64,000 bases of DNA from Amphiscolops sp. MND2022 (GCA_964187785.1 OZ076409.1:3846001-3910000), one strand, 5' to 3'. Positions 9,901 to 46,369 are shown, counted from the stretch's first letter. Program-made: numbers and translations. The notes: a model not told the origin generated them from the sequence alone.

Positions 9901-10115
9901 TTAGAGTGCACTTCAATAATAGCCTGGACAACTCAGTCATCTACTTTTTTCCAACGTTCTGAACTAGGCCAGCCATGAGGGTTCGGAGCTTGAGGCAATG
10001 ATTTTTTTCTACTTTGCTAATAATGATGAAGTCATGTAAGGCTACAAATTGAGAAGATTGATGAATAACCTATCCTGACAACTTTTTCGAGGGTCGTATA
10101 GTTCCTAATATGGGT

Positions 10116-11181: not shown

Positions 11182-11454
11182 CTACAAAAGATCAATGTTC
11201 TACTAATGCAGACGTATATACTCTTTATCTCCTTTATTATCCAATCAAATGTAAACATCACTATACCTACAATTTTGATTTAAAGACAACCTCAGAAGCA
11301 CGATACAACCTTTTCCTTCAAGTTGTTATTTACAAGATCTTAGACTGAAAACGTTTTTTACTATCCATTTCATAGTCCGAAGTTCATGTATCATTTGAAA
11401 CAAGCAAAACAATATGTAACTTTTTTCTATCAACTTTGTTTTACAGCTTCTTAC

Positions 11455-11682
11455 TTCCATTGTATTGGCCGGTGGAAAAAAACTTGATGTGATGAACTAC
11501 TGAAAGTTCAACTTTGAATAGGAGTCGTTTGTTTGGGTGAATACAATTTGTAAATTGCTTGATTTCGATTTCATCAAATGCAGGGATTCCTGGTAGGTGG
11601 AAAGGATTCTTGATCTCTTCAACTGGTTCCACGTAATATGAATTGATAGGCACTCGATTGATAATTGCTCTCATCTTCCCCG
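11455..11682 (-). CDS. Internal exon of paralog A
   Basis: Acceptor ctatttcag| at 11683 and donor |gtaag at 11454. Open frame (ORF 11441..11674) containing NCIHP...FKVELSVVHHIKFF. Confidence 0.5.
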
Positions 11683-18000: not shown

Positions 18001-19253
18001 TTGGTATCAAATCCATTTGTTTGCTGTTGTGATGACGATTTTTGTCTCAAAATGGCTTCAAAATCAAAGGTAGCAAAAGACTTGTAGTATCTGTGCTCAT
18101 GCGGAACACAAACATCAAACACGGTCTCTAACGTTGTGAAAAAAGTGGCAGTGGGCGAATATTTCCCACCTGGATAGGAGTGATCTGACTTTTCCGAGCA
18201 TGACTTTAAATAGCGATTTAATTCAAACAGTCGTGAAAAGTACTGTTCGCACTTGATGCACTTCAATCGTCGAAAAAAGACGTTTAGGTTTCGAATTAGA
18301 CAAGTGTGGTTATCGACTAGAAGCAGGTCAACAAAGTTTGATTGCATGTCCAATGTCAATGTTTTACTACGGTATAACAATTCACCTTGTACAACATTGT
18401 TTACATCTAGCTCAGCTGAAAACACTCGGATGGCACAAGAACAAAACTTTTCAACGTCTGGCAGGTCCGTCAGCTCAATACCGAAGAAATTTTGAACGTT
18501 CTTTTGCACTCCGCGAATGTACCTTTGAAAAAGTTCCACTGTTTTAGATTCCAATCCATGCATAGAAATTCGTTGAAAGGCAGCCAAGGTACGAAATACA
18601 CAAAGATTATCATTAAACTTTCGTTTCATAGATCTGCTCTGGGTAATTGTCCAAACACTCCTTGCGGATTTGATGAAATCCGGAATATCTATTACATCTT
18701 GATCGGCGCTGCCCATTGGCAGGCGTGACAAGTGTGTGGCATGTAGAGAGACGTTGGTTAAACAGAAAAAGTCCATTTTGTGCTGTCGCGAATGTTTGTA
18801 AGTTTTTCAATGAAGTCAGTGTTGAAAATGTCTTGTTTTAATAATTTGAATTGTTCAAAGTTTTCTACTAGCTTTGTATTGGGTAAGACCGTTGTATTGT
18901 CCCTTGAGTAGTAGTACCGATATTCGCCAGTTTCGTTGTTTGAGGGAATGTATCCAAAACTGACTTTCATTTTGGATACCCTCGTTTTTTTGCTGTTGAA
19001 TCACAGAAGCCACATTTGAAGTTTTCTTCTTCACATGCCTCACAGATTTATGAGTGTTGAGATCTTGGCTACTTTTTAAAATGTAGTTGCACTGTCCACA
19101 GTGTAAGTCATCATCCTTGTCATGTGTCTTTTCATGTCGGTTGCGGTTGTACTTGCGCGAAAACTCTTTTCCACATTTACTACAAACAAAAGTTACAACG
19201 GATGGCGAAGTTGAAGGTGTTGTTGTTGTTGTTGCTCCATCAGACGACTGCAT
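15046..19253 (-). pseudogene. polB: Protein-primed family B DNA polymerase with N-terminal C2H2 fingers and a Vsr-like nuclease insert; many frameshifts
   Basis: ExoI FDFEAI, ExoII FNNGFYDL, ExoIII YNNLD, motif A GYDANAL..MPTG (~16770-16830), motif B KLIGNSAY, motif C MDTDSFY, TPGLFKIEW, SKTY, KG. Spread over ORFs 18855..19346, 18758..18970, 17325..18776, 16979..17275, 15875..16273, 15630..15860 and 15046..15954. Confidence 0.93.
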
Positions 19254-19969
19254 CGCGATGAATAAGCAGCAGCAGCACTTGCCGTCGTTCTTTCGGGAGA
19301 ATTTCAATCTAAAACAGTGCCTGTTTGTTACTACAAATCCAAACAATTTTCGAAGTTTTTTAGTAACTCCTGAATTTGCTGTGGGTAAACATCAGACGAA
19401 CAAGTTTTGTAACAAAAATGAACAGTGCAAACATCACATCATGCTTTATGGTTTTGACGATATACAAATTAAGTTGATGCATTTGAATTATGATTTTGAA
19501 AATGTAAATTGTCCCTACAGTTATTTCAAATTCTTCATTATTCTTTCGGAAAAAGTTGTTTGTATTCATGGGAACTTCCTGATGGAACCTTTGTTATTGG
19601 CTACCAGACACAATCGTATACATCGAAGCAAAGAATGTGTCACAAGTCTACTTTGGAGACGGATTGGTCGGAAAAAAGGAGACGACACTCACCAGCAACA
19701 ACCAACAGAGGTCCACAACACACTATAGCGTCGCTGATGAATATTGGTCAAATGCAGATTGTTGTCGTGACTCGTCTATTGGAAATTTTGCAACAACATT
19801 CTTCATCTGAAATTTCCACCATCAACACAAATGACATCAGCACATTAACCGAGTAATTTTCCTTCGGAAGCCTACCTTGCAAATTCAAATCATTACTTTT
19901 GTTCACTACCTGCAGTTCAGCTGTTATTTGCTGATTCAAAAAATTTTGACAAATTAACAAATTTTCATC

Positions 19970-27339: not shown

Positions 27340-27491
27340 TGTCAATATCCACTTAAAACCCCAGTCAAGTGATTTTAAACAAGTGTTTACAACAATATGA
27401 CAGCGTCACTCAACTAAGCTAATAACGAGTGTTTCTATTTTTACCGACCAATAGCTTTCCTCTCTGGCAGAATTATTTGAGCTCAAGCTAA
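27340..27491. repeat. Left part of a probable older solo LTR interrupted by element 2
   Basis: Starts TGTCAAT; the matching ATTGACA end is at 46363-46369. No clean target-site duplication. Confidence 0.4.
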
Positions 27492-27764
27492 TGTGCTGCT
27501 TTTTATAGTTGGTTTATTTGATGGTGGTGGTGTTATTCACAACTTACTAAAAAGCGGCTAAGAGACAGGCTAGCTAGCTAACTTTATTACAACTAGTTCG
27601 AGGTGGTAGAAGTAGAACAAAAAGGAAGTCAACCAAATACTGATTATTAGTTTTCTCTCTCTGAGGGAGTAGAGACTTACAGTCATTCAATAGTAAATAA
27701 AAGTACATTCTAGAACATTTTATAAACATCTAAATACTATTGGTTATTAATGTAGGTCAGTACA
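27492..27764 (-). repeat. 3' LTR of element 2 (273 bp)
   Basis: Direct repeat of 45769-46039, with about 6 substitutions and one 2-bp indel by eye. Preceded on the minus strand by the purine-rich tract AAACCGGGATGGA. Confidence 0.97.
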
Positions 27765-28809
27765 TCCATCCCGGTTTTTAAATAAAATAAATTTTTAAAG
27801 TAGCATCATTAATTAAAATGAAGAAAAAAGTTTTTGTTTAAATGTTCTTAGCGTTTCAGCTAGTTAACATTTTTCATTTGATGGATGATTGGCATAAGTC
27901 TCTTTAAGAGTGGTGTAAGTTCGACTCATTGGTGTACCTCAAATTGTCAAAATTTTGATTGACACCTCGTAGGTGCGACTACAGTTCAAAAAGCGTCAAA
28001 GTGTTCTTTTTCACTATGCCTTCGTCGGCTTGTTTTTTTGAACTGGTAGTTGCTCAATTTTATGCCTTTGTTGAAGTCTTTGTATGAACTTCGCATTTAA
28101 CAAACGTGAGCAAACATCATACGAGTTAAAGGTCAGAGAGTCATTAAAAGAAGGAGAAAAATTTTTTTGTTGATAAGATTTTTTCATCGAGTGTGAAAAC
28201 TGTCTGAAAAGATATCAGGTTGTGATCAACTTTGGCGGGTTTGTTATGTAACAAATGTTGAAAACTTTGAGAATTTGGATCTGTCATTATTCGAATCTGA
28301 TTTGAACGGTGTGCTTGATCTATTTTTTTGAACTTGTTTTGTTGAAATGTTGAAAAGATTTGTGGTTAACATATGTGAATTTTGGATAGGATAGCACCGA
28401 AAAATAATAATTATAATTATTCTTTAAAAATAATGCAAATAAATATCGGTAAGGGTATGAATCAAATGATTTTGAGGGCAAATAAATATGGGTGGGAATG
28501 ACTTTTGAAATAAATACATCGCAAGTGTTTTCGATGTGAGTTTGTACTTTTTTAAAAATTATCATGCACAATGTTTTTTCTTCAAGTTTCTTTTATTATT
28601 GATTATTATTCATCTTCTTCGGCTGAGAACTAGATGGCTGAAGATTGACGATTGGATGAAGATTGGATGAAGATGGGTCAGCTGTTGGGCGGCGGTGAAG
28701 TTGTGAAGAATGGGCGCTGAGTTGTGACGAGCAGTCGTTGTTGATGGAGTTTGGATTGGAAGATGTGTTGTCATCTGAAGAGTGCTGGTGATGTCATCTG
28801 TTGATTTTA

Positions 28810-29286
28810 TCAAAAAGAGACGTAAGTGTACGTTTTGTATGGGGAATTAACATCTAGAAATGTTTCTGGAGGGTCTTTTTGAAATTCTTCATCTGTATCG
28901 TCGTTATTGTCTGAAGGCCAATAGGAATATAGGTTTTGTTTTTCCATTTCAGAACGCATTCTGTTAGATAGATTTCGTAATAAATGTTTGGGCTTGATGG
29001 TAGTATGCTCTGTTTGGGTAGTGGCGTCTCGTTGGGTCGAATATGTATCAGTATGCTTTTGAATTTGAAGATATTGATCAAAGTTGATTCGTGTAATCTG
29101 AAAGATTTGAAACATATTGAGCAATATCAGTCTTGTAAGATGAGGATCTGCCTTTTGATCTATTTTGAGCTGTGCATTTATTGTTGTTAAATGCTTTTTC
29201 AGAATCAGGGATCGCAATCGGGCTGAAGGAATTGAGAGAAGAGGAGCTGTTGGGCAATCGATGTCACCAGAATGGAGTGTCGTCAT
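28810..29286 (-). CDS. Accessory ORF of element 2, unknown function
   Basis: 158-aa ATG ORF in element sense. Preceded by branch point/acceptor actaatctatttttag|G near 29402. Overlaps a further 67-aa ORF at 28610..28813. Confidence 0.55.
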   Translation of the reverse strand: MTTLHSGDIDCPTAPLLSIPSARLRSLILKKHLTTINAQLKIDQKADPHLTRLILLNMFQIFQITRINFDQYLQIQKHTDTYSTQRDATTQTEHTTIKPKHLLRNLSNRMRSEMEKQNLYSYWPSDNNDDTDEEFQKDPPETFLDVNSPYKTYTYVSF

Positions 29287-29804
29287 ATTGAAGAATATGA
29301 AGAAGTTGTTGATAATTGTAGAGAATTTCGTTGGAATTCTTTTTGGATGGACGGCTTGAGAGGAGAAAAGAATGCTGATGAAGCAGTTGTGACGATATTC
29401 ACCTAAAATAGATTAGTTTGTTTACAATAAAGTTCCTTTTAAAATAGAGTTTCATAGTTGACATTTTTGGATGTAATTTGTTATATTATAACTTTTTAAT
29501 TTTAAGAATTAAGTTGAGATATTTTGGAAATCTTTTGAAGGGTATTTAAATATCTTTCATATAAGTACTTATTTGTTAAAATTGGTCCATTAAAAGGAGG
29601 AGCAATTGAAGAATTTTGTTAAAAATTTTTATGTCGCGATTGAAATTTTTATATTATTTTATTTTAAAAGAGTATTTTAATATCAAACATGTAATATAAT
29701 CATGCATAGCAGGCATATGCGTGTAGACCCAATTAATTTTGACAGGTTGTTAAGAGATTAAGTGATGTGTTAACCATTTAAAGTTATTATCCCATAATTA
29801 CCAG

Positions 29805-31090
29805 TTAAGATCGCTGTATTTTTTCAAGTGTATAGTTGAATTCGTCCAAAGATGTGCGAATACACAAAGCTGATTGGCTAATTCTTGTCGTATCAAATAC
29901 GATATTTTGTATTATGCTTCGTGCTTGTTCAAGAGTATTTACGATTTCGGCGATTGTTATAAGAATATCTCGGTTCGGATGATGATAAAGTTTTATGATG
30001 TTCAAAATTTCTGTATATTTTTGTAATTCGTCCGTTGGGCGAAAACTTTGTGGTTGAGAAATGTCACTTTTGGTTTTCTTTGGCGATTCTTGTTTTTGTC
30101 TTTTTGTGTTCTTTAGTATTTCCGTTTGTAAGAAGTGAAAGTAAATGAAAAATAATGAAAATTAATTCATTAATTGAATATCCGTTTTTGGTCATTGCGT
30201 AAAAATAAAATTTTTCACAGACTCCCAGAGGTTGAGAGGCTATATGTTGAAGTGGAGGGAGAGGATCAGATATATTTTGAGGTATATCTTCCTGTAGTAG
30301 CGAATCGTCGTTCAAAATGAGGTATTCTTGTGTTACAATGATTGGTCTTTTTGGATTATCTTTTGGAAGGAAAAGAAAACTTTGTTTAAGCGGGTCATAA
30401 TTTCTAAGTTTTCCTTTTGTTTTGGTATGATCTATCAAATATTCTGAGTTGAAAGTGAATGGCGACGTTTATTTGGAGTTGAAGAATATATAATTATCGG
30501 GCTCTTTGTATTGAAGAAACTTTTGATAAGTCAAGTGATGAGCCTTTTTGATTTGGTATTTGCAAAAAATTTGCATCATTTTCTTCGGTTCGAAGATCAT
30601 ATGGAGATGGTCTGAGAAAGTTGTATTGGAGTGAGAAAATTTTCACTTTATTGTTTAACCACCAATCATATTGGGTAATCAATGTTGAAGCGATTGAAGT
30701 ATGATAATCATTTTTAAATTCTCTGATGATGAATTTGTATTTTATTGGAATCATGTATAACGAGGTTAACTGAGATTGAAAGGCAAATTTTTTTGATGAG
30801 AGAATAGGAACTAATTCACAATCTCTATCTTCATCTTGTTTAACTGGTTTTGTGAAAGGAGGGCAAGCGCCAGATTCCATAAAAGGTTTGTCTGCAGTTA
30901 TATCTGGATACTTTCTTTTTTGAGATCTTGCGTTAACATGATCTACTTGTTCAATAGGAATAGTTTCCATGGGATCTTGAGAATTTGAAGATGAATTATT
31001 ATCTTCGTTAACATTTTGTTGAATAGTTATATTCAAAGGGGATGCAAGCAATTCAGAAGGGTTAGAATTAACTACATCAATTTCGGGCAA
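29805..31090 (-). pseudogene. Accessory ORF downstream of env, broken into three pieces, unknown function
   Basis: ORFs 30494..31090, 30064..30438 and 29805..30005 are consecutive, on the same strand, with element-like codon composition. Confidence 0.55.
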
Positions 31091-31538
31091 GGATTCCTTT
31101 ATTTAGACTTGCGTGTTTTGTAGAGCTGAAATAATGATTATAACGTTTGGTTATACTGTTTCTAATAATGAGGAAAAATTTTGTTATGTCTTTTCTGTCC
31201 TTTAAATTGTTTGTTAAAAATGAAGTTTAAATTGTACTTACAGTATGAGAATAACTGAGTCAATTGTGGGTTGGAAACATCAACAATCACAGTGGTATCT
31301 ATTCCAGGAATAGAAACTTCTGTAATTTCGGTCTTTTAGATGGACTGAAGATCCAGTTGAAGTCTTCCGGTTGAGTGTTGAGTTGTGATGGGCAAGTGAA
31401 TTTTCAGTTGAGTTGAAAGGAGAGACTTGTCTAAGTGAGAATTTGGGTTTGAATGAAAATTAAACTAAGGAAAATTTTGTTAATAATTTTTTGAACTTTT
31501 TCTGAGGTTAATTTGTTTATTTGGTTATTGCTTTTTAG

Positions 31539-34116
31539 CTAGGAGGATTTAAATTCTATAAAGACTTTAGCAGGACTTTCCGGTACAGCTATTACATTTG
31601 GTAATTTTGTGTCATAGTCCTGAGAGTTAATATCGTTGACATTAGTTCGGTGTGTCTTTTGCAGTGATTGAAATGATGAATACTTACTGGAATATTTAGG
31701 AGGTAAATACGGGAAGTCATTATCAGAGTATCTTCTCAGTTTATTGTGTAATTCTTTTTCCGGCAATAGGATATTATCACTTTCGCTTGTTGTAATTTTG
31801 TGTTTAGTATATATCCGTTTTCGTTTTCCTGTATTGTTCAAATCGGTTATCATTTACGATGTAACTATATTTAAAAATCCATGGGCTATTGAACTCAAAA
31901 TGGGAATGTTGCTTTGGAGATTATATTTTATGCTAATTGTTCTGTAGAATTTGAGTAAAAGTGTTAAAACTTCTCTAATGAAAAGAAATGTTGAAAAGTA
32001 AATTCCACATTGTGTTAAAACATAACATGGATATCCAAAGAATTTAATGAATGCTTGACTGAACCAGTCAGGGTTGAAAAGTGGTAAGAGGTTTAACAAG
32101 TGGTCATGCACTCCAATCCTTAAATGATTATAAGGATTGTATCCTGAGTAGGAATTTATCATTATGCACTGTGTTGAAATCATAGCTTAATGATTTTCCA
32201 AGTAATTGAAGAGTTGTGTCTGAGTGTTTAGCGAATAATACTCTGTTCCAGAATTGATCTAATTCTGCATTTGAGTATATACCGGCATCTTGGGCGGTAA
32301 ATGTATCAGGAGTGATTGTTGTTTTAATTTGGGCAGGTTTAAACATTTGTGGTGCTTCTCGTTTGAGTGGTTCTGGTGTTAACACATAAAAATCTCCGTC
32401 GTTAGAATCTGGGTCTAATTCGATTATATTTTGTGGGTTGTTTCCACATTCAATTGGTGTTGCATAGTTAAAAGTTTGTCTTGTTATAGGATCAACATAC
32501 ATTATAGTTTCTCTATAGTGTATGGGAATTCTATCAAAGCATTTATCTGCCTTGTATAGTGGTGATATAAAATGAGGGCAATCATACAGCCATGCTGTAG
32601 ATCCTTCAACGTAGAGAAAGTTACTACGATTTCCAGTTAAAAGAAAACCGGCTAATTGAGGATTCTTAACTGACATAGCTAAGATTGTTAACAATTGAGT
32701 TCTTTCCATTTCACATATTGTATGAAGGGTGTTTAGTTCTTGTACTGTCATGGATTTAAATACATGATTTATTTTGAAATCAATTTTTGTATTAATGTGG
32801 GCATCGTAGTCTAAAGTGGCGAAATTGTTTGATATATTCAATGCAGGGAATGTATACCTTTTATTTGAGTCATCATATTTTATGTTTCCACTAATTGTTT
32901 GATCATTTATTGAGTGTGGTTTTGGTTGTCCTGTGTTCATATCAAAACCATCTAAGTATGTAACAAAGATGTCATCATATTGTGTTGAGAATAATGGTTC
33001 AGGTTTTCCACAAAAGGTTTGTGCAATTGGGTATATTTCAAATCGAGAAAGGCTTGGATTGCTTACTTTTGATTGTGGTGTTTTCACATTGGGATATCTT
33101 GTTCCTTGTATTCCTTCGGTTTGAAGTTTTTGTGTGATGTTTGAAGTTCCAATGAAGGTATCGGTTTCTATCCAATATCTATCATTAATTCGTGTCATTC
33201 TACCAATGAATTCTTGAAGTTGAAATATGAGGCAAAATTTTTCATCAAACCATGTTAATGTGTATGGAGTTTTTGTTGTTGGTTTACAAAATCAGTCTAA
33301 ATGATAGCACGGTAATACGTGTCCGTCATGTATTAATTGATTGTTTTTATCATCATAGTCTATTGCGGTGTTAACAATTCTAAGTTTCCAACTTTGTCGG
33401 GTAATTAAATGTTCTCGGTCGGCTCGACATCTGGAGTATGTATTTTGTGTAACATTAACTATCCAGTCGGGATATTTTTCATCGAATACGAAGGTTCCAA
33501 TATGCCATGTGTTTAATTTCTTTACTCTAAATGGTTTTTGAATTCGTTCAATTTTGTTTTGATAGTTACTATCGTCGAACAATGAGAAAGAGCTTTGTAT
33601 ATTGTAATTGTTTAATTCTTCGCTATCAGTCGCGTTTAAATATCTTATCATGTTTTTGCATTCAATAGGGTCTAATATTTTTGGAAGTTCTAATGTGTTT
33701 TGTCCCCATTGTTAACGATCATATCGTCTACTAGATGTGAATGTTTGTGAACACCAGACCTTTTCAGTCTTTATATATGCTTCGCATTTAAAGGCTTTTA
33801 TTCTTTTGGCTTTTGCTCTAACATAAACTGTTGCTTGGGTTTTTTTGTGTTGTATATCTGAAGGTGCTTGTTTACATGGTTCAACATTTAATAAACTGAA
33901 TTGTCTTAAGTTGTTTTGTTTTGCACAATCAAAATGGGATACCATTAAGTTTAAAATGTTGGGGTCTTGGTCTGAAATATGATTTTCTGAATTGGTTGTG
34001 TCAACTTTAGGAACAGTTGACGGGTGAACTAAAGAGTGAACTATGTGTATTATATATATGTATTCAACAACATGTATTATGTATACTAGGTATAGGTTAA
34101 AGGTTATGTGATTCAT
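31539..34116 (-). pseudogene. env: Envelope glycoprotein, class III fusion type (herpes gB/chuvirus-G-like), with in-frame stops and one frameshift
   Basis: Hydrophobic leader, HFDC..RQFSLLNVEPC..FKC..WC, ICEMERTQLLTILAMSVKNPQLAG..EGSTAWLYDC, CFDRIPI..YVDPITR..PIEC, TM FFGYPCYVLTQCGIYFSTFLFI. ORFs 33712..34116, 33292..33651 and 32128..33198 share one frame separated by single stops. Confidence 0.88.
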
Positions 34117-34129
34117 GGTTAAAATATTG

Positions 34130-35680
34130 GTTAAAATGTTGTTCTATAATTAAGTCCTGAGTAGGGATTAAAGAAGTTTATATGTCCTGTTCTAATCTCA
34201 GGTAATTCTGCGTCACAAAAGTAAGAAATGGATGTGACTATGAATGGTGAAGGGGTTGTTTTGTGTGCTACTCTTGTTGAAAGACAAAATGGATGAGGTC
34301 CTAACGAATTGAATGTGACTTCTACTTCAGATTTTAATATGAGTTGTTGTTCTTGTAGTCTTCGTAATTCTTTTTGTTTTCTTTGAGTTGAAAGTGAGCT
34401 ATTGTTTATAAATCTTGCAGGTAATACTGTGTATCGAGGGTCTTCGTTAAGAGTACGAACAATTCTTGAATTAACACGGATAGGATATTCGTGAGGGTTT
34501 GGTGTTGGAGGTCTTGAAAAATCTTCTAAAAATATTCAGGTAGTTGTATAGAAGAGTTTGATGTTATTGAACTAGGTGAATAAACTTGTGAAAAATTAGC
34601 TGCGCTATCTGATATAGTTATTGGGTCTTCAGAAAGAAGAGAAGCTGTTTCAAATCCTGATGTGATTTGAAATGGTAGTGACAAAGAAGATGGTATAGTG
34701 GGTTGAGATGAGGAAAGAGAAGGAGTGTCTAATCTGGGTTGGGCTTGCTGTCTAACTAGTCTTGAGTTTGTACTTGAACTAATTAAAGGTTGTAATTCCT
34801 GAGAATTTCTTCGTTGTTGAGATCTAAGGTTATAATTATGTCTTGGTACTCTAGTACTGGCAGTTGAGTCAGAATTTTTATCTTTGTGATATAAATCTGT
34901 TAAAGAAGAGGTAGTAGTTGAATGTACACGTTCTAATTCAAGTTTGGGATATATTTGAGAAAATGTGAATGAACTTAGTTCAGATGGTGATGGAATTGGG
35001 TGTTGTTGTAATTTCTACACTGGTGCCTTTAATGAAGTTTCTGGTAAGAATGTTATTGGAGTATAACTTGTTGATGGTAAGTTGGGGTTTTGTGGTAGTT
35101 TGGGTGGAGTATGACTTGTTGATGGTAAGGTCTTGTGGTAATGTAGGTAAAGGAGTTTTTCTTTTTGTTTTATTGCTGTTGGTATTTTTTGTGGACAAGA
35201 ATTTATGTATTGCAGAACTGAGCTGGGGTCAGGGATATAAACGGAACGAGTGGTAGTAATTGATGGAAGAGGAGGTCTATTTAAAATACTTGAAGTATCT
35301 TGTGTAGTTGGTGTTGTAAGTGTTTCATCATTAGAGTCAGTAACTGGTGAACTTGTTTCTGAAAATACTAAATTTTGTGAAATAGGTTGTGGTTGAGTTG
35401 TTATTACTGGTGTTTGAGTCTGGGATATAGGTGTATTGGTGGGTGTTGCTGGTACTCTATCAGGAGTATATGGAGCGGATGGACTGGGGCTTGAGGATGA
35501 GGAATCCAGAATGTCTGTATCTGAGTTTAAATATGCTGTAAATTCAGGTAATGTTTGGAGTGAATGTGTTGAACTAGAAGATGAATTATTTGTGGTTGAT
35601 GATGGTGAATGAGTATGTCTATCAATTCTGAAATCTTTTGTGTTGTGGTAGTTTGCTTCAAATTGTAAGTTAGTTAGTTT
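34130..35680 (-). pseudogene. Ser/Thr/Pro-rich coding region between integrase and env (largely missed by the ORF track)
   Basis: ATG-less open frames such as HSPSSTTNNSSSSSTHSLQTLPEF..PSAPYTPDRVPATPTNTP and EDFSRPPTPNPHEYPIRVNSRIVRTLNEDPRYTVLPARF..RTGHINFFNPYSGLNYR. Confidence 0.6.
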
Positions 35681-35823
35681 TATATTAATTAGAGTTTCTT
35701 TCTTTTATTATCACTTGTGAAAAAATTTTTTTCATTCAATTTCACATTAAGTTTCAAACTTTCTTTCTTTCTTTCAAATTTTCTTTCTTTCTGTATTTCA
35801 ACAGGATTTTTGAGAAAGTGAAT

Positions 35824-38800
35824 TTATATCCTTTTCACCAAGGAAAAGTCGATAGTCTTTTCTTGGTTGTGGGCGGAAATTGTATCTATTATAGGAGTGT
35901 CTTTTGGGGTAAAAAAATTATCATAGTCATGAATGTCTGATTGGTTATCTGAGTTGGTATTTTTAGAAACTTGTTCTTTTTCTTGGTACGGAAATGAAGA
36001 ATATTGGCTAAATGATTCCGGTTGGAAGTCGATTGTGGATGGTATATCCGTTTCTTTATTAAACTTTGTGGAAGAAAATTGATCTTCGTCACTGAATTGG
36101 TTTTCATCGGAGTCAAAAGATTTTATTGGATCGTTTATATTCGAATAATTATCATTGAGTAAATGAGGATTATACTGTTGTAGGAAAGGAAAAATAATTG
36201 GTTCTTTTGGATAGTAAGGAACTAAATGGTTTCTGTGTATGTGAGATATGTAACTATCTTGATTAACAATTTCATATGTTATATCGGAAATTTTGTTAAT
36301 AATTTCAAATGGTCCAATTCTGAGAGGTTTTAATTTGTCGGAAAAATGAACATGGAGCAAATTTCTTTTTAGTACAAATGTACCAATATCCAAGGGTCTC
36401 GGATTGTGGTATGTTTTGTTAAAATAAGCGTAGGAATTAATTTTTCTTTTTGTGTTTTCATATACTGTGTGGTATAATTGTATCATAGCTGTTTCAGTAG
36501 CTAAGATCCATTGAGGGATCGGTTTAAATAAAATTTTATGGAAGAAGGGGTTTAGATTTGATTTGTCATAGTGTGTATGAAGTGGTAATTCTTGACGATA
36601 TTGGGAAGTACAATTTCTATAGGTATCTCTTTGGAGATTGAGTTCAAAATTGATTGGAATTCTGGGTATATTATGAAATACTATTTCAAATGGAGATAAG
36701 TTCATTTCAGAAAGTGGTTGTGAATTATGTGCATAGGCATACATATGAACTTGAGTAGACCAGTTTTCTCGAGTGGCATGTAAGAAAAGTCTGAGATGAG
36801 TTCCAAGATTTCTGTTTTGATTTTCAACTAAACCATTAGTCCATGGTGCATAAGGAGTTCTTGGTGAATGTCTAATTCCCATTGTGGTACAAAGGTTTGC
36901 GAATTCGGAATTAATGTATTCTGATCCACGGTCGGTAACTAGGTATACAGGAGGTCCAAATTTTGTTATCCAATGATGAAGTAAGGAGTTAACAGCGTTC
37001 TGAGCATTATTTTGTTTTATAGGTGAGTTTTATAAGTGACTAAAAGCGTCTACTATAACATGAATGTATGGGTTTTGATTTGATGGTGGGTTTATAGGTC
37101 CTTTTGTATCCATTGATATTCGGTAGTTGAATGATGAAGCATTTTCTGAAAATGTTTGTATGGATGCAGTTTGTATTTTTTGGTTATTATGTTTATTTTG
37201 TTGACATTCAATACAATCATGGATGAATATTGACATCCATTTATTCAAATATGGTATGAAGTAAAATTGGTTGAAAGCTTTGATGGATATTTTTATTTCT
37301 GAGTGTCCATGAGCGTGAAGTTTGTTAAAAGCTGCATGGAAGAGGTTAAATGGTAAACATATTTTGTCTCTTTGATTCGGGTTTGAATCGTGAAGATTAG
37401 GATAATCTATGTGAAAAATTTTTGTATCATGGTTAATATACAATTGGTTGAAAATTTTATAATATACTAATAAGAAAGAATTTGCTGCAATTGTTGGGTC
37501 TATTTGTAAGGGTCTTTCATTATTAAGTACCCATTGGTAAACTTTTTGTAAAACAGTGTCTTGTTCTTGTTGCGTTTCTATTGTTTCAATTGTTATTTGT
37601 GTATCTTCTGGTAGGAAGAAATAATTAAAATATCTTTCGTATTTGAAGAAAGATGGATCAAAAAATGGAACTTGTTGATTACAGTAATCGGATTTGGTAG
37701 GATATTGTATAGCAAGTGTGTGTTCTTTTAATATGTCTGAGTTTTGATGTTGGATGATATTTGATTGAGTAAGTTCATCGTCATCCCTGAGAATATCAGT
37801 ATCATTAAGAATTGTCGATTGTTGTAAGAGGGATTTTGTTTGGTTTATTGTAGGTTTTTTATATTTCGATTCAAATGTAACAATAGATTGAAAAGAGAAA
37901 GAATCTAAAGGTTTTATGTGGATATCTTCTCCTTTGTTATTTATACAGATAGAGAATTGGTCGTCTCCGTAGTCAGCAAGAATAGGATGACAATCATTCT
38001 TTTGATTATATTTGATTTCTTCGTGTTTTACTAAGTAGTGTACTGGTTTGAGTTGATTATCTTTCATGATAGAGAAATCTATTTGAGGTGGTAATTGTTT
38101 GTGTCGTAATTGATGTACTTGTAATTGTTCTTTTGTAAAAGTTCGTGAAAGCATATCTGCTACAGTTAAGTTTTTCCAGGGGTATGAATGATTTTCAGTT
38201 TGGAGAATTTGGTTAATTGCATTTGTGCTCTATAGAATCTAGGACTAAGATTTCCTTTCTTTGCAAAACAATGTAGTAGAGGTTTGTGATCTGTGAATAT
38301 GTATATGGGATGAGGAGATCCAATGATCAAAAATTCATATATTTGTAATGCGTAAACTATTGCGAGAAGTTCTCTGTCTAAAGTTGAAAGTTTTTGTTCT
38401 TGTGTGTTAAGAATTCTGGAGTTATAAGAGATTACTTTCATTTTGTTTTCTTCGTTCATTTGGAATAAGACTGCGCCTAAACCAACTAACGAAGCGTCTA
38501 CTGTTATGAAAAATGGATGCGTTGTATTGGGTATGGTTAATTCAGTGTCTGCTGTCATTGCATTTTTTACATTTTGAAATATTTTTCCTAATTCAGGTGT
38601 CCATTGGAATTTAACATCATCATGTAGTAATGTATACAATGGTTTTAGGTTTATATGGAGTTTTTCAATGAATTCTGAATTGAATTTAACACTGCCAAGA
38701 AATTGCATAACATCTTTCTTTTCTTTTGGTGATGGAATTCTTTTAATGGCGTCAATTTTGGATGGAATCGGTTTGATTGTGTTATTACCAATTTCGTGTC

Positions 38801-41363
38801 CAAGGAACTTTACTTTGAGTAACATGTAGAATGATTTTTCGGGTGCAAGTTTGAGATTTTCTCGAGATGCTCTTTTATGTAATTCTTTTATAAGTTCAAA
38901 CATTTCTTGTTTTTCATTTGCGAGTAGTAAAATATCATCAATATACACTAACGCAGAACGTTTGTCTTTAAGTGGTCTAAAGAAAGTTGACATTTGTTTT
39001 GTGAAAAAGTTTGGAAGTCCCTTTAATCCGTAAAATCCACGGATAAAGGCGTATAGTTTGTCACCGGATGAAAATCCTGTTTGTTTGATTGTTTCTTCGT
39101 CTAATGGTGTATGAGCATAGGCATACATTAAATCAATAGTTGATTTATATTTTTTAATGGCTCTAGCTAATTGAGGAGCTAAAGGTTCAATATGCCAAGA
39201 ATCAAGTTCTTGGTTGGTGTTTGAGTTTAAATGTCTTGCGTCTAAGACAACTTTTATTGCGTAACCTTTGGGGATAATAATTAAAGGGATTAAAAATGTT
39301 GTTCCAATTGTGTGTTTTTCATCTGAGTTGGAACCATTTTGTTTTATTATTGTATTTTTCGAGTTCTAGTAAAAGTTTATTTAGTCTATCTCTGTAGTGA
39401 ATTGGTACTTTAGAAGGTCTTTGTGTTTGAAGTTTACAGTTATCTTTTATTCTAATTCGAAAGGAAGTAGAAATTTTTCCTACGTCGTTCTTATGTTTGG
39501 CGTAACAATTTTGATTATCAATCAAAATATTGCAGAGGTTTACATTTTCTGTATTGGTTAAATCTGAGTATTCAAAGTAAAACTTTTTTTATGAATTGTT
39601 GGTTTTCTGTAGAATATGGTAATGGAGGAAAATGTTTTCGAATTTTATCTGAGGGTCGAAGATTTCCAGTAACAGAAGGTATAGGAAGTTGAAGTGTTTT
39701 GTCTTTGATTTCTATTTTGTTAATTTCTAATAGGGATTGTGGTATTACCCTAGTACATAAGTTCATATCTGCATATGGATTTTGTTTAATTGGAGTTGTG
39801 GTATCAGGATGATACGCATGTTTTACAGAGTGAATAAGTGAGTTTACATCATTAACTCTAAGTGAGGAGGAGTTGTTTGAGTAATAGGGATTTCTATGTA
39901 TCCAATGATTCCTCGTGGTAATGTAGCTGGGTAAAATGTAAAGTTTTGAATTATGGTTGCACAAGAGTCGTTGCTTTTTTCATTGACTATCATATCCAAG
40001 AAATGAAAGATATCTTTAAATTTTTGTAAGAAGAATGTTTATGGGTTTGTTGGATAAAATTTTGTATTATCTTCAAGTTCAAAATGTAGATTTGAATAGT
40101 TTTTAATTGGGAAATGTATGGTTTTTCCTGACCTTGGTTTAAAGTGAATTGGTTCTTTACATTTAATAGTATAGATGTAAGAATTATATGGGTAATCTTT
40201 TTCTGTAAATGTGGAAAATGTTGTTTTTGTTGAAGCTTTGGATGCTGTTCTATGTAAGTCATAATATTTTGTTGAAAATCGATATTTTGGATGTGTGTTT
40301 TGAAAAAGGGTGTCCCAAGAATGTTGTATTTGATATTGGCTACAGCGAAATTGATATCGAAGGATCGCGTTTGATGGTTTACTTCAGTAAAACAGGTCAT
40401 CGAAATATAGTGTATTATTGGTACTTCAGTTTGGTTTGCAACTGTAAGAGTTTTGGCTCTTTTGTTTTCAAGATTGGTTGGAACATTGATGTTTAAATGT
40501 TTGGAAATTACATGAATTGGTGGTAAATTCAAAACAGATATGGATGCTCCAGTATCTAAGAGGAATAAGATTTCTAATTGTGAAGGTAATATGTTTTCAT
40601 TTGTTTCAGAAGCACGAACATATAGTGGGTAAAACCAACTATAAGGAGTAATTGTATTAGCGATTTCAGTTATTTGACAGGTGTGGATTTCAAATTTTGT
40701 ACTATCATTGTCTTTTGTAGATTTAACGTCTACTTGATTTATTCTGTTTTGTTGTCTGTTTCGTGAGGGTGTTCTAGATGGTGATCTAAAATCTCTAGGT
40801 CTTGATGGAGATCTATATGGATAATTATATCGTTTAAAAGAGTTTCCTTGTGATTGAGAACGGGATCTATATCTTGAGCGAGAGTTATATCTGTAATTTG
40901 AGTTATTTCTGTATGGAGATCTATATGGAGATCTAGATGGAGTTCTTCGTTGATAATAATTATCAAATCGAGATCTATATGGACTTCGAGTTCGATTGTA
41001 ATATCTTTGTCGAGAATTTATTCTATAGTTGTTTTGCGAATATTCTCTACTATAGCTACGATATCTATCATTATTTCTGTATCCATAGTAATTTTGATTA
41101 TATTTGTAACGATCGTTATCTGAGGAGTAAGTATTTGTATTGTCATTTCGAGTTTCTTGTGAGTTATTAGGTTTACTGCGAAAATATTGTACAAAAGATT
41201 GTTGAGGAGTTCGTGATCTTTGGTTTTTGTATTTCTGGTATTCATCATCACGTTGTTTTTGATAACAGTTTGAAATACCATGATTATTTTTGTGACAAAA
41301 GGAACAATATTTTTTATAAGCTGGTTTGCTTATGTTATTTGGGTCTCCAGATTGAGTAACCAT
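35824..41363 (-). pseudogene. pol: Gag C-terminus and Pol of element 2 (CCHC, RS-rich tract, protease, RT, RNase H, long linker, integrase), several frameshifts
   Basis: CSFCHKNNHGISNC, LLDTGASIS, YIDD, VDAS..RELLA..TDHKPL..ADMLSR, HAHGH..CIEC, MDTKGP, TDRGSEY, PWTNGLVE, GPFEI. Confidence 0.95.
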
Positions 41364-43512
41364 TATATGATCTCCATGTTCAAATTCTCTTTTGTTTGTA
41401 TCATCTTCAGGGGATACTTTGTTTATTTCTAGAGCTAAGTCGTTAGTTCTAATTTTTTCATTAGCAATGTCTTCAGAATCGACATGTCTAACAAGTGTGT
41501 GAAATGATATTGAAGGTTCAAGTAATGTCGATGCATGTTTAACTTGTCGTTTATGAGCAAAATCTTTCAGTTCTTTGGGTAATCCTTTTGTAAAGATTTC
41601 ATTATTTTTGAGGTTTATGGTAGCTGCATTTTCATTGCACCATCCCTTTTTAACTAATTGTTGTACTCTAAGGGCGAAAGGCGTACTGTTTCATTATCTT
41701 TTTTCATGAGTGACATAGCTTCTACTTGGGCGTAGTAAGCTGTTTTTTGAGATGAAAATTGTTTTTTGAATAATTGTACGAAGGAGTTCCATTGTTGTGT
41801 ATATGATATATGAAGGTTAGTATACCAATCGAGAGCTGTTCCAGTTAAAGAACATTGTATGTAAGCCTTGCGTCTATTATGCCAGGATTTGTATTTTATA
41901 GGATTATTCTGAGGTTCTTCACCTATGGCGAAGGTTAATCTAGCTTCGATTTGTTGTAGATATTCTTCTGGAGTATAAGAATGGTCTAAACCATCAAAAG
42001 GTTCCATAGATTCTGGTATTGAAGCGGGCATGTTCATAAAGGTATCTTGTGGTATTGGTAAGTATTGGAGTGGAGGAGCTACTTGTTGTGTGAGTTGAGG
42101 AGGTATATGTTGAGTTGTATTTTGTGGTAATGGACTTGGATTTAGATTAGGATTAGGATTTGTACTTGGATGCATTTGATATAAAGGATCAATTGGTATA
42201 TGTGTAAGTGGAGGGTTTTGAAGTCTTCTTTGAGAAGGTTGTGTGGTATGAGAATAAGAAGTTGAAGGATACGAAGTTCCTTGATTTTGAGAATATATAT
42301 TATTCTGTGAGGTACTGGTTTGTGATAATTGTATGAAAGGGTTTTGTGTTGTTGAATTCGTATTAAATTGAGAGTGATTTTGGTTGATATTTGTATTAGT
42401 ATTTGTATTTGATGGAGGAGAAAAGTTATAATTGAATGGATCGTAATATTGATTGGAAGTTTGTGGATTATCTTTACGATTATTGTTTGAAAAAATCGAT
42501 CTATCTGAGCGGAAAGCAGAATAAATTGATGGAGGATTGTATCTAGGTCGAGTAATATAACTTTCAGAATCAGGAATAGTTCTTGTTGGAGATGCAACGT
42601 TAACAGAAGTATTCTGAGCATGAGAAGTGGTTAGAATATCTTCATGTAATGTATTATGAGTTTCGTCGTGTGTTGTTTCATCTGTGTGTGGATGGTAGAA
42701 AGTTATATTACGGTTTGGAGATGCATCTAAGTAAGATTGAGGATTATGTGTATTTTGTCTTTGATTTACAACTCTAGTTGGAATTTTAAAGGATTGAGTG
42801 TGTGTTGATGTTGACGTTCCGGCTTGTGATGCATTTTGTGTTGAAATTGTAGATTCTTGAGTAGTAAACTCACTCGCATTGTTTTCAATGGTCTGATTAT
42901 CATCATTATAGTTTTTTGATTTCGATTTTGTTGTTGGAGTGTATTTTCATTATTGGTATTATCATCTTCAGTATAGTTATTAGTGTTAAAATTTAAGTTT
43001 TGTTGAACTTGAGAATTTTGCTCATAGTGATAAGGTCTATTGTCTGCAAATAGATCATTTTCTGTAATTAATAGAGGATCAAAACGTATGTAATCTAAAG
43101 TTTGTTTTGTAATTAGTTGTGGTTTACGGAAATAAGGATGTTCATTTTGTTCACTGATGATGAATAGTAAACATTCGTCAGCTGTAAAATGATTTGGAAA
43201 TGCTGTAAAAGCAGGTTGATCTTGTTGTGACCATAATAGTTGGTAATTGAATCTGAAGTATTTTCTGAGGTATAGAGATATTGCTTGGATCTGAGGAATT
43301 GTTTGGTCATTTTTTATTAAGTCTTTGGAATAATGGTAGAGGAAATTTTGTATTCGTAATATATCAGTTTGTAACCAATGATGAGGATTGTCTTCAGGAT
43401 TAACTAATCTTTCAATAGTTTCTACTTCGAAATTACTGATGTATCGTTGAAGCTCGTCAAGTGCATTTGGACTAAATTTTGGGGTTTCAAGTGCTATGTT
43501 GTGGTCTTTCAC
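41364..43512 (-). pseudogene. gag: Gag capsid region and long N-terminal extension of element 2, frameshifted
   Basis: PFDGLD..PEEYL..L.G.ALDWY..W..F...F..QFS..MKKDNETVR capsid motif in 41654..42175. Upstream Q/N/P-rich linker and a 248-aa ORF at 42766..43512. Confidence 0.8.
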
Positions 43513-45259
43513 ATGGTTTAAAAAAGCATGAAAAACTTGTTTAATAGGAACGTGGAGGTTTATTGGATTTTTTGTTCTTCTGTATATATGAGATGAATTA
43601 GGTCATTGTTGAGGAAAGGAGACTTGAAAAGCTGGGTATTCTGTAGTGATGGTTAGAACTTTGTATCTGATCTAGAAGAGGTATGTGTCCAAATGTTCTC
43701 TAATAAGAGGTATTGTTTCAATTGAATGAGGTTCATTTTCAAATGGGAGTGGTTTAGTATAATGGGAAATAATGTTTTGTAGGAATGGGTTTAGTTCTAA
43801 TTTTACAACTTTTGCATTTTCAATGACGGGAGTTTGAAAAGGTAGAGGGGTTGTTGTTGAGAAGTTCGTTTTTAGATTTTATCTCATCTCACTGTAAGTA
43901 TTTTTTCAAAGAGGATACTAAATAGAAATAAGACACAAAACGTGTATGTTGTAATGAGCACTACTGTGGTAACTTTTTCCCACATGTTATAATATGAAGG
44001 TTGAAACGTTGAAAATAATATTTAATATAGATCCTTTTAAGTTGGAGCTCTTGGATAATATCTTTGTTGATTTATGAAGAAGAAAAAATATTGTTGATAT
44101 TGTTCAATTAATCTTTCAAAATCGTCTGGTATAGGGTTTTGAAGTGAGCTAATTGGTTGTAAAAGAAAGTGTGAAGAAGCAGGTGTTACAAAAGGAATGT
44201 AAAAATTTAAAGAGTGAACTGTTTGGTTGTATACGTTAGAGTTCATATAATTTGTGTTCTAACAAGAATTTGAAGCTATTTGGGATGTTAATAGTTTTGG
44301 ATAGAGAAGAAAGAAGCGGATGCAATAGAATCTGTATTCAACCTCAAAGGATTGCTAACAGAAAATAAGTGTGATTTTAAGCCTGCATCACTTCAAAGTG
44401 TCTAACATAAGGTTATTGACACGTCCAGAAAAGCTAAGGTTGTTTTAATTTTATGTGGGTTGTGTGTTTTAAGACTAAGAGAGTGGAGCTCTGAACAATC
44501 AACGTCCATTTTCCAAAGTCTGATCAATACTGATCAAGATCAAAGTTTGATCTTTGTCTCTTTTACTTTTCTTCCTGAGAATTTTGAAGATTCGAACGTA
44601 GTTCGGTGTCCTCTTCGATTCTCCTTAAAGACGTTTTCACTTAACTAAGGTTTTCAGTCAGCCTTAGAATCAGAGTGAGCTGGGAAGCTGTCTGATTGTC
44701 TAAGTCTTACGGGAGGGGATAGGAATTGTGGGTGCCTGAAAGTAGAAAACTACCTTTACAGTGTTCGTGTTAGTTACATGCCTTATTTTAGGTTTTAGGG
44801 CAAAAGAGTTGTAGGAATTGTATGTGGTAATTTGTCAAAATAATTGTTTTGTAGGATTATGTTAAAATTATTGCTGTTGAAAGTATCAGATATAAAGGTA
44901 AGTGTAGATTGTGTTGTTATTTTTCTTGTGTTGTTTAAGTTTCTTGAAATTATTTGTGTTGTTTGTCGACAATTGGAAAAGAAAAGGAATAGGGCGTGGA
45001 TGCTTTTTATAGATAGTCTTGGTTGCCTTTTTTTGCATTCAGAGTCTATTTCTGAAAACTATTTTGTAGAAATTTTTTGTAGAAAATGCATCCGAAACGT
45101 ATAAGTAGAAAATCCAGGTTTTCTGCCAACACGAAGTTGATCTTGAGACGTATGTGCTTATAGGTGAGCGGAGCTGGACATGCACTCAGTCAACTCTAAC
45201 ACCAGGAGTCCACCTGACGTTCAAGATAGCAGGATTGAAAAAAGTTGCTGTGTTAAAGG

Positions 45260-45535
45260 TGTTAGAAAACCTTGATAAACCAGACAAACATCAAAGAACT
45301 GTTTCAACAAGCGTCCGGATTAGCTGTGATAAATCAGTATAGAGAAGAGAACTGTGTCACTTGTGGACAAATCAGTCTGGAAAGAGAAGAGAAACAGAAC
45401 TGTGTCACAATGGATAAATCAGTCTGAAATGAAACCGTTTCGACGTGTTAGAAAACGTGATAAACCGGTATGGCAAGAAGAGCAGAAAGAAGAACCGTGT
45501 CAACGTATTAGAAAACGTGATAAACCGGTATTGAA
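45260..45535. repeat. Imperfect tandem repeats (about 6 units of 40-60 bp) in the 5' leader of element 2
   Basis: Recurrent GATAAAYCRGT core with AGAACYGTGTCA and TTAGAAAACGT blocks. Confidence 0.75.
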
Positions 45536-45753
45536 GAAAATTTGTTATATTTGAATTGATTGTTGTAGTGGAGACATTGTATGTCTAACGATGATGTATT
45601 TAGTGATGAAATTCAGAAAGTCACAGACTAAATTTTCAAGAAATTCGAGAAAGATTTCACTGCAATTCCAGAGAATTTCAAAGATGGAGAGGGGTATTTG
45701 TATTATTGTTGAGAGAAGAGAAATCATTCAAGAGAGAAAGGCAAGAAATTTTA

Positions 45754-45765
45754 CAAGTCGCACCA
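45754..45765 (-). promoter_or_regulatory. Primer binding site TGGTGCGACTTG of element 2 (tRNA identity uncertain)
   Basis: TGG begins 3 nt inside the 5' LTR end. Confidence 0.7.
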
Positions 45766-45768
45766 AAT

Positions 45769-46039
45769 TGTGCTGCTTTTTATAGTTGGTTTATTTGATG
45801 GTGGTGGTGTTATTCACAACTTACTAAAAAGCGGCTGAGACAGGCTAGCTAGCTAACTTTATTACAACTAGTTCGAGGTGGTAGAAGTAGAACAAAAGGG
45901 AAGTCAACCAAAAACTGATTATTAGTTTTCTCTCTCTGAGGGAGTAGAGACTTACAGTCATTCAATAATAAATAAATGTACATTTTAGAACATTCTATAA
46001 ACATCTAAATACTATTGGTTATTAATGTAGGTCAGTACA
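45769..46039 (-). repeat. 5' LTR of element 2 (271 bp)
   Basis: Direct repeat of 27492-27764, TG...CA ends, followed by the TSD CTAA. Confidence 0.97.
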
Positions 46040-46043
46040 CTAA

Positions 46044-46369
46044 TAGAACTGTGCTTGTTTGCACCTAGCAACGCCAATTAGCTGAGAGAAAGAGAATGAA
46101 TCTAATCAAGCTCTCTGCTCGCTTTCCGTCAGCCGGCACTATTCAGCTATACCTAATCTTAATACGTACGGAGCGCTTACGGAGCAAATTGTTGATATCA
46201 TGAAGGGAGATCATCACGAGATCATTATTGATATCATCACGTGAAGAAAGGAAATTATACCTAATCCTAATACGTACGGAGCGCTTACGGAGCAGATAGT
46301 AAAGAAATGAAATTATACCTAATCTTAATACGTACGGAGCGCTTGCGGAGCGGAAGGTAAAGATTGACA
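46044..46369. repeat. Right part of the probable solo LTR, with three copies of a 38-bp motif
   Basis: TATACCTAATCYTAATACGTACGGAGCGCTTRCGGAGC at about 46149, 46256 and 46314. Ends ATTGACA. Confidence 0.5.

Follow-up and report, generated by a model that had tools for sequence, protein, structure and literature searches.

Here we describe an unusually long endogenous retrovirus-like element in Amphiscolops sp. MND2022, found in a 64,000-nucleotide stretch of its DNA (GCA_964187785.1 OZ076409.1:3846001-3910000; hereafter the window). Positions 27492-46039 of the window form a single long terminal repeat (LTR) element of 18,548 bp in reverse orientation, on the minus strand, which is most probably one defective, fairly recent insertion of a native 18.5-kb element of the Ty3/Gypsy type. 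One architecture is common to the family of this copy, to a subfamily 78% identical at the nucleotide level and to a sister family: a short LTR, a leader of ~1.9 kb, a giant gag-pol, an open reading frame (ORF) between pol and env (ORFx), a fusion glycoprotein gene (env), a second additional frame (ORFy) and a small 3′ ORF (ORFz). On the evidence of frame-specific substitution ratios, ORFx, ORFy and ORFz evolve as protein-coding sequence.

The element is framed by direct repeats with TGT...ACA ends, which match at 97.1% of positions in a global alignment and enclose an internal region of 18,004 bp; the 4-bp target duplication CTAA lies on both sides (Table 1). A first-pass annotation of this DNA had proposed a complete provirus with a target-site duplication and very short LTRs, and the ends bear this out, although the copy itself is defective. 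Every long frame of the element is on the minus strand, an orientation that the annotation did not give. The sense strand has a uniform composition across the whole element (A 38.4%, T 28.9%, C 21.7%, G 11.0%) from which the flanks differ, and such A-rich, G-poor uniformity speaks for a single unit, not for nested elements. At such a composition a stop codon is expected about every 15 codons by arithmetic, so the long open frames described below are far beyond chance. The bias extends over the whole 18 kb in both the window family and the sister family (10-11% G, 34-38% A); it recalls lentiviral genomes and could stem from a bias of the reverse transcriptase (RT) or from host editing of minus-strand DNA.

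Copies elsewhere in the genome indicate that the length is native. Own-genome probes were scanned against 1.07 Gb in 1,929 contigs, and counts of open copies given here refer to scored matches only, drawn from larger sets of first-look candidates (2,336 to 11,873 per probe). A 1.2-kb RT probe gave 3,279 such candidates, and all 40 that were scored were 95-100% identical. From these thousands, six full-length copies were read: the window copy, three siblings, one subfamily copy and one sister-family copy. The three siblings (18,124-18,550 bp) align collinearly with the window element from LTR to LTR at 94-97% identity and with small gaps only, so no nested insertion is present. The diverged subfamily copy, on contig C9 and reached through its ORFy protein, measures 18,522 bp and is collinear throughout at ~78% nucleotide identity, with LTRs that are 92.6% alike; the sister family, in the same genome and with an Env 60% identical, is represented by a copy of ~18.1 kb with 441-bp LTRs and the same gene order. 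All five fetched relatives are therefore collinear from LTR to LTR (18.1-18.55 kb), and each of the five copies with readable ends, the window copy among them, has a perfect 4-bp duplication that differs from the others. Distinct duplications and collinear relatives together argue that the 18-kb unit integrates whole, and, judging from these alignments, its size is native and old. Proteins of the two families have diverged to 66% amino-acid identity in pol, 55% in protease (PR)-RT, 52% in capsid-nucleocapsid, 31-47% in the N-terminal part of Gag, 53-61% in Env, 38% in ORFx and 40-49% in ORFy.

A misassembly, or a unique chimera between an ordinary Gypsy element and its neighbouring sequence, would explain the unusual length, the only observation in its favour, and its probability is negligible. 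Five independent copies on five chromosome-scale contigs, with the same ends and different 4-bp duplications, already refute it, and the RT, ORFy and ORFz probes match the same places at the same spacing (for example, ORFy at G000:C2 84282428-84283714 and ORFz at 84284120-84284719). The first-pass annotation had judged the size native and free of nested insertions, and had named as contrary outcomes siblings without the extra regions or matches of those regions to independent transposable elements; all three siblings, the subfamily copy and the sister copy retain the regions, which match no independent transposable element or Pfam family.

The families appear, from these counts, to fill a sizeable share of the 1.07-Gb genome, and the many copies in which the accessory frames and the sister-family env are open indicate that the clade was active recently. 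Some copies are rearranged. At G000:C9:7861239-7900349, whole sister-family elements are arrayed in tandem: three env genes follow one another at intervals of exactly 18,204 bp, and two 441-bp LTR copies are ~100 bp apart at the joint. In a sibling at G000:C10:43520503-43530798, a 3,046-bp internal segment reaching from the end of gag to RNase H (element 4957-8002) occurs three times head to tail, and RT matches on contig C1136 are likewise ~3.04 kb (3,038 bp) apart.

The window copy is inactivated by at least ten frame changes and five in-frame stops. On the frame map, its gag-pol has at least six frame changes and one in-frame stop, its env three in-frame stops and one frame change, its ORFx one stop and one frame change, and its ORFy two frame changes; ORFz is open. 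The first-pass annotation had counted two or three further sense ORFs, and three are present, of which ORFx and ORFy are thus broken in this copy. A variant nuclear genetic code was considered as the source of the in-frame stops and rejected: TAA, TAG and TGA are mixed, their positions differ between copies and they are missing from most copies, a pattern that indicates decay.

Whether the extra sequence encodes proteins was assessed from substitution ratios. A window-family copy was compared with the 78% subfamily copy in frame-agnostic DNA alignments of each region, and the Nei-Gojobori (NG86) ratio of nonsynonymous to synonymous divergence (dN/dS, omega) was calculated in all three frames; dS between the compared subfamilies is 0.5-0.9. 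Earlier tblastn-based alignments gave similar values and were not relied on, because protein-guided alignment biases omega downward. The canonical genes have low ratios in one frame: 0.15 in gag (other frames 0.93-1.25), 0.12 in PR-RT (1.50-1.74), 0.16 in pol (1.08-1.47), and 0.24 and 0.19 in env (0.95-1.26). The N-terminal part of Gag gives 0.41 and 0.36 in frame (other frames 0.65-0.94), ORFy 0.10 and 0.20 (1.20-2.33) and ORFz 0.27 (0.84 and 1.47); with ORFx, treated below, the accessory frames span 0.10-0.36 in one frame only, and the wrong frames of coding stretches span 0.65-2.33. The leader (0.65-0.99 in all frames) and the spacers together with the 3′ untranslated region (0.48-0.85 in all frames) show no frame preference, and values of 0.77-0.85 in all three frames mark the 3′ untranslated region as non-coding. 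The long leader of the first-pass annotation is accordingly present and non-coding.

These ratios bear directly on the idea that the extra 7-8 kb is a functionless passenger, made of captured host or foreign sequence or of transposable-element remnants, whose frames are open merely because the copies are young. ORFx, ORFy, ORFz and the N-terminal part of Gag have no homologue of known function, and members of one family are only a few percent apart, so little that many frames would be open through youth alone. Youth does not account for the single-frame omega of the accessory ORFs at a dS of 0.5-0.9, when leader and spacers lack any frame preference, nor for the presence of ORFx and ORFy in the same order in the sister family at 38-49% amino-acid identity, and relatives of ORFy extend down to ~25-30% identity. 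We consider a passenger origin very unlikely. A lineage with accessory genes, as the first-pass annotation had concluded, is instead supported by the constraint on these ORFs and by their mostly open copies; the sense of an infectious agent is not part of this outcome.

Pfam matches follow one another along the minus strand as Retrotrans_gag, RVT_1 with RT_RNaseH, Integrase_H2C2, rve and SH3_Tf2-1, and then, after a 1.6-kb gap, PF24664 in env. The domain order PR-RT-RNase H-integrase (IN), with the integrase after RT, is that of Ty3/Gypsy elements (Metaviridae). Among proteins of solved structure, Ty3 Gag-Pol (7q5b, E = 6.9e-48) matches pol best, ahead of the next non-Ty3 match (1.3e-24), foamy virus (1e-13) and caulimoviral enzymes, the last also far behind; this comparison of solved structures, which is not a phylogeny, places pol in a Ty3-type lineage and not in Retroviridae. 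In the sister-family copy gag, PR, RT, RNase H and IN form one uninterrupted frame of 2,715 codons. The capsid-like domain (Retrotrans_gag, E = 1.2e-05) is preceded by ~650 residues, the extended Gag of the first-pass annotation, comprising an N-terminal domain of ~330 residues with no family match and an Asn/Gln/Ser/Thr-rich stretch of ~330 residues; a search of solved structures by sequence and profile returned nothing real for the N-terminal part. Behind the capsid-like domain come a CCHC zinc knuckle, seen by eye and not called by Pfam, and an Arg/Ser/Tyr-rich tail. This low-complexity tail (~150 residues, ~40700-41000) is conserved in the siblings and, in its composition, is reminiscent of the RS domains of SR proteins. 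PR is recognised by a DTGA motif, again by eye, and by a weak Pfam match (E = 0.19), and the frame also holds ~290 residues between PR and RT and a bridge of ~300 residues between RNase H and IN, both without an assigned domain. The RT had been called divergent on account of the strings IDLMYAY and GFYGLKGLP; both are indeed present in the 38166-39365 frame, yet they stand alongside an ordinary YIDDILLL box.

PF24664 ('Monjiviricetes_fusion') matches the env pieces of the window copy at E = 1.7e-19 and 6.2e-05, the sibling env at 4.2e-21 and relatives down to 2.5e-27; the matches from 1.7e-19 to 2.5e-27 pass the curated cut-off. An N-terminal hydrophobic, signal-like stretch and a C-terminal stretch resembling a membrane span were identified by eye, and the nearest clusters in the protein Atlas carry PF24664, Baculo_gp64 and Rhabdo_glycop, the nearest of all being mostly arthropod-labelled; an Env profile found no match among solved structures. 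In the sister family the env frame is intact over 901 codons, and 49 of 50 scored copies, 98-99% identical, have no stop. On these profile matches Env belongs to the chuvirus/rhabdovirus-type fusion glycoprotein family. Its class III assignment, which the first-pass annotation had also made and which we retain as a predicted one, follows from this membership and from a recent survey in which the Chuviridae-like retroelement glycoprotein is described as structurally gB-like and gB-like proteins as class III fusogens (Chary & Hayashi, eLife 2026; PMC13524379, in the portions drawn on here).

ORFx has 526 codons in the intact sibling and 418 in the sister copy, and neither contains a Met codon. 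The frame opens 120-160 nt past the pol stop and ends within the first env codons; its product would be Ser/Thr/Pro-rich and of low complexity, with relatives down to ~40% identity that share a conserved C-terminal block of ~130 residues. In six of six copies, the element's longest stretch without an ATG in any frame falls in ORFx and stops at or close to the env AUG; it measures 1,212 nt in the window copy, 801 nt in the sister copy and 847-1,213 nt in the remaining four, which belong to the window family and the subfamily. None of 2,000 shuffles that kept local base composition reached 1,212 nt (mean longest run 502). When the codons of ORFx from the sibling on contig C2 were shuffled with amino-acid composition kept, 8.6 ± 2.4 ATGs were obtained against 3 observed (13 of 2,000 shuffles at three or fewer); the same shuffle of the sister copy was not significant (158 of 2,000).

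Such features could also describe an AUG-free 5′ leader of the env messenger RNA (mRNA) that encodes no protein, its open frame being a by-product of A/C-rich, G-poor composition. The lack of any Met in 526 or 418 codons, the ATG-free run that finishes at or close to the env start in every copy read and the low-complexity Ser/Thr/Pro-rich sequence would all fit. But with stops expected about every 15 codons, 418-526 codons are open in two families and 79 of 101 scored sister-family copies have no stop; the in-frame omega of 0.34 contrasts with 0.73 and 1.19 in the two other frames, and the C-terminal block is conserved at 40% overall identity. A purely leader-like ORFx is therefore unlikely, and we favour a coding one. 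Two ways of starting it were rejected. Fusion to pol by readthrough or frameshift is precluded by the 120-160 nt between the frames, which contain several stops, and the Met at which some database relatives begin is a TTA codon in all four copies of the window family, so the database 'M' may be an alternative start chosen by a gene caller. In the same interval between the pol stop and ORFx, the sense strand bears a purine-rich (GAAA)n-like 20-nt tandem repeat (35752-35792; element 10248-10288), conceivably an internal polypurine tract for plus-strand priming of so long a genome.

ORFy is about as constrained as protease and RT by its omega values. Of 98 scored own-genome matches, 81 hold it as an unbroken 431-codon frame and 17 have one to three stops; in all intact versions it starts at a conserved Met directly behind a stop. 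An ORFy profile retrieved 315 library representatives at E ≤ 0.001, down to ~25-30% identity and with shared motifs, and the protein has basic clusters. AlphaFold2 models had a pLDDT of 30.7 with 9 sequences and a mean of 54.8 with 102, the sole confident part being a helical hairpin at the C terminus (residues ~356-429); Foldseek comparison of the model with viral models gave no match at E ≤ 0.001 (TM ≤ 0.13), and the protein Atlas contained no usable match. Sequence and profile searches of solved structures with ORFy and ORFx likewise gave nothing real, the only matches being designed coiled coils (E = 0.009), and the accessory ORFs had chance-level matches only in Pfam at E ≤ 1. In the old subfamily copy (G000:C9:2384000-2404300) gag-pol and env are in many pieces and ORFy is still one 469-codon open frame; its protein is an exact entry in a public collection, and its openness may be chance. 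ORFz is free of stops in ~113 of the 150 own-genome matches that were scored, nearly all of them as a 200-codon frame. Because ORFx and ORFy are kept in the sister family and in distant relatives, these two are, on their distribution, old and lineage-wide genes, and ORFz, which found no match there, is younger or faster-evolving.

The three ORFs might alternatively be exons of one or two larger spliced products, such as an alternative Gag-Pol C terminus or a multi-exon regulatory protein. An ORFx that has no start codon and opens so soon after the pol stop would suit this arrangement, as would an ORFz frame that is open for 41 codons ahead of its first Met and keeps its 200-codon length in most copies. 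The conserved Met of ORFy right behind a stop in all intact versions and the absence of a coding signal in the spacers between the ORFs speak for separate genes, and we regard the exon arrangement as rather doubtful.

We propose the following expression scheme for separate accessory genes. The full-length RNA would serve as genome and as gag-pol mRNA, and ORFx, env, ORFy and ORFz would be read from subgenomic RNAs, most likely spliced. The lack of an AUG in ORFx, and the ~1.0-1.2 kb before the env start that is free of AUG in all frames, lead us to propose that ORFx and Env come from one shared subgenomic RNA: translation of ORFx would begin at a non-AUG codon or at one supplied by splicing, and ribosomes passing it would scan on to the env AUG. 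ORFy is the best candidate for a regulatory factor, given its strong constraint, basic clusters, helical tail and the precedent of the CERV protein of Cer1; that it exports the very long intron-containing genomic RNA is a guess. Cer1, a Gypsy-type element of Caenorhabditis elegans, is ~9 kb long and is not known to carry a fusion glycoprotein. Its CERV is a family-less extra protein made from spliced RNA that exports unspliced genomic RNA (PMC10309623, in the part consulted). The likeness to ORFy is that of an extra protein without a family, drawn from the description of CERV rather than from its sequence, and the functional parallel is hypothetical only. For ORFx, a possible parallel in translation strategy alone is offered by rice tungro bacilliform virus and the badnaviruses, plant pararetroviruses that are no kin of this element, in which an AUG-cleared coding stretch likewise precedes the AUG of the next gene; in the former, ORFs I and II are AUG-free, ORF I starts at AUU and leaky scanning covers ~900 nt to the next gene (PMC5902531, as excerpted).

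Several observations weigh against this picture. Splicing, subgenomic RNAs and start sites in the scheme are conjecture. ORFx has no AUG and no convincing splice signal was found, the donor strings AGGTRAGT and GGTRAG occurring nowhere in the copies searched and GTAAGT occurring 2-6 times per copy, about the chance number for the composition, which allows no conclusion. The depletion of AUG exceeds what amino-acid composition predicts only partly. The omega values come from single pairs of partly decayed copies and are inflated by neutral changes after insertion, and that of ORFz comes from an alignment of low quality (63% nucleotide identity); ORFz also has no blastp match in the sister family. 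Functional assignments of the accessory proteins are weak, there being no Pfam, PDB, Atlas or fold match and a poor ORFy model.

Drosophila gypsy, ZAM and Idefix (genus Errantivirus) have a Gypsy-type pol, a 4-bp target duplication and an env expressed from spliced RNA in flies; they comprise three ORFs with a class I F-type env in 7-9 kb. The element described here is about twice as long, has gag and pol in one frame, a fusogen of another class and three extra genes, and so departs from the three-gene gag, pol, env layout. Also comparable to it are the gB-type errantiviruses of PMC13524379, a survey reporting intact env-carrying Ty3/gypsy elements across invertebrates with an Env of F type or gB type, among them 114 Gypsy elements with a Chuviridae-like glycoprotein in beetles, Hymenoptera, Polyneoptera and copepods. 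They share with it a Ty3-type pol in an LTR element, a sense env after pol, a chuvirus-like Env and many near-identical copies. That survey treats gag, pol and env only, and the word 'accessory' is absent from its main text, whereas the present element adds three further conserved ORFs, one of which lies between pol and env; its LTR-to-LTR spans, computed from LTR coordinates in the first part of Supplementary file 1, are 7.4-12.6 kb, against 18.5 kb here. Outside insects, by its own text, the survey sought env no further than 3,000 nt past gag-pol. The present env ends ~4.3 kb downstream, so elements of this kind may have been missed.

That typical Gypsy elements are well under the present length, as the first-pass annotation noted, is right, yet larger ones are in print: Burro of planarians and Ogre of plants are likewise Gypsy-type elements well over the usual ~10 kb, with thousands of copies and extra coding capacity (PMC6431247, in the sections used here, as for the following comparisons). 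Burro also has homology to a mononegavirus-like env, but it exceeds 30 kb and holds its extra domains and env in-frame within one polyprotein of ~4,900 residues, unlike the separate ORFs after pol found here; Ogre derives much of its size from LTRs of 1.9-6.5 kb, compared with ~272 bp. The internal region of the present element falls short of the 20-kb threshold for giant retrotransposons in the same paper. Captured ORFs between pol and env, or after env, have already been noted in LTR elements (PMC6431247; PMC5408684, in the passages drawn on). Bdelloid rotifer elements carry captured ORF3s for a GDSL esterase, a DEDDy exonuclease or a dUTPase, usually one per element (PMC5408684), and foamy-like endogenous retroviruses of fish, members of Retroviridae, are enlarged to ~17 kb by accessory ORFs (cited in PMC6431247). 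Here too ORFs are added after pol or env, but they are three, family-less and part of a Metaviridae-type element. A limited literature search found no report of an ~18-kb env-carrying Gypsy element with several accessory ORFs. Neither this type of env nor the notion in general of a Gypsy 'retrovirus' in invertebrates is new; what that search did not bring up is a clade of env-bearing Gypsy elements that combines tiny LTRs with an 18-kb internal region and has three separate accessory ORFs under selection.

A bolder reading is possible, and we hold it only tentatively: that the families represent a so far undescribed clade of 'complex' invertebrate retroviruses of the Gypsy lineage, still replicating and possibly with a cell-to-cell or extracellular phase by way of the class III fusogen, whose accessory genes arose independently of the vertebrate ones, with a Rev- or CERV-like ORFy and a bicistronic ORFx-Env RNA translated by leaky scanning.

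Table 1. Features of the 18.5-kb element, by position in the window
Feature	Position	Strand	Remark
Target-site duplication CTAA, 3′ side	27488-27491		same four bases at 46040-46043
3′ LTR, 273 bp, TGT..ACA ends	27492-27764	minus	265 of 273 positions match the 5′ LTR
3′ untranslated region	27765-28809	minus	~1 kb
Candidate polypurine tract	27765-27779	minus	short purine-rich stretch adjoining the 3′ LTR; by position only
ORFz, 200-codon frame	28810-29412	minus	open in the window copy; first Met at codon 42
ORFy, 431 codons in intact copies	29805-31102	minus	three pieces in the window copy
env, ~860-900 codons in intact relatives	31539-34143	minus	AUG at 34116; PF24664
ATG-free stretch, ~1.2 kb, all frames	34119-35325	minus	ends at the env start codon
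ORFx, Ser/Thr/Pro-rich, between pol and env	34134-35704	minus	ends inside the env start
gag-PR-RT-RNase H-IN	35824-43860	minus	single frame of ~2,700 codons in intact relatives; start approximate, by homology
Leader	43861-45768	minus	~1.9 kb, non-coding
Primer-binding-site-like TGG	45754-45765	minus	3 bases past the 5′ LTR; candidate, read from sequence
5′ LTR, 271 bp	45769-46039	minus	direct repeat of 27492-27764
Target-site duplication CTAA, 5′ side	46040-46043		matches 27488-27491

No tRNA was found within the window, and the 9- and 10-base 3′ ends of the string complementary to the primer-binding-site-like stretch are absent from the primer-binding-site table of PMC13524379. Just beyond the 5′ LTR, three copies of a 58-nt direct repeat (46133-46356; 74-100% alike) suggest that the element landed in or next to another repeat. 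The window is dense in transposable elements and no host gene was recognised in it. A second, more ordinary Gypsy-type element with long open frames lies on the minus strand at 434-6013 and runs towards the window start; it encodes a 471-residue gag with zf-CCHC, an aspartyl protease, a 790-residue RT/RNase H (RVT_1, E = 6e-36) and a 396-residue integrase. Two more integrase fragments (Integrase_H2C2, rve) occupy 58030-59040 and 60122-60847, also on the minus strand, and a 178-residue minus-strand frame with a C2H2 zinc finger (18855-19391; E = 6e-07) adjoins a 493-residue frame without a Pfam match (17325-18806).

A mitochondrial COX1 was met elsewhere in the assembly, on its last contig (G000:C1929:11804-13138). 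It has 11 internal TGA codons, and 14 AGR codons become stops under table 2; of seven mitochondrial codes under which it was scored with Pfam, table 5 gave 458.4 bits, table 13 457.1, table 21 457.0, table 9 444.5 and table 4 436.3. Table 5 is thus favoured, closely followed by tables 13 and 21, and the scores point to an invertebrate host whose mitochondrial code is of neither the cnidarian nor the echinoderm type. In the surrounding 4.3 kb, ARAGORN with default settings detected no tRNA. Searches of the genome for insect odorant receptors (PF02949) and arthropod cuticle proteins (PF00379) gave no match, but their controls were equally silent and the result carries little weight.

Env-carrying Gypsy elements are known across animals and have been described as three-gene elements of ~7-13 kb. 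Surveys that seek env at a fixed short distance from pol will miss elements such as this one, and, with thousands of candidates per probe, the families matter for the annotation of this genome. They raise the question of how RT, capsid and the nuclear export machinery cope with a genomic RNA of 18 kb, and they offer candidates for study in an ORF without a start codon ahead of env and in a tightly constrained 431-residue ORFy without relatives of known function. Three extra genes under purifying selection, in families whose proteins are 38-66% identical, show that gene gain, the step from 'simple' to 'complex', has also occurred in the invertebrate Gypsy lineage.

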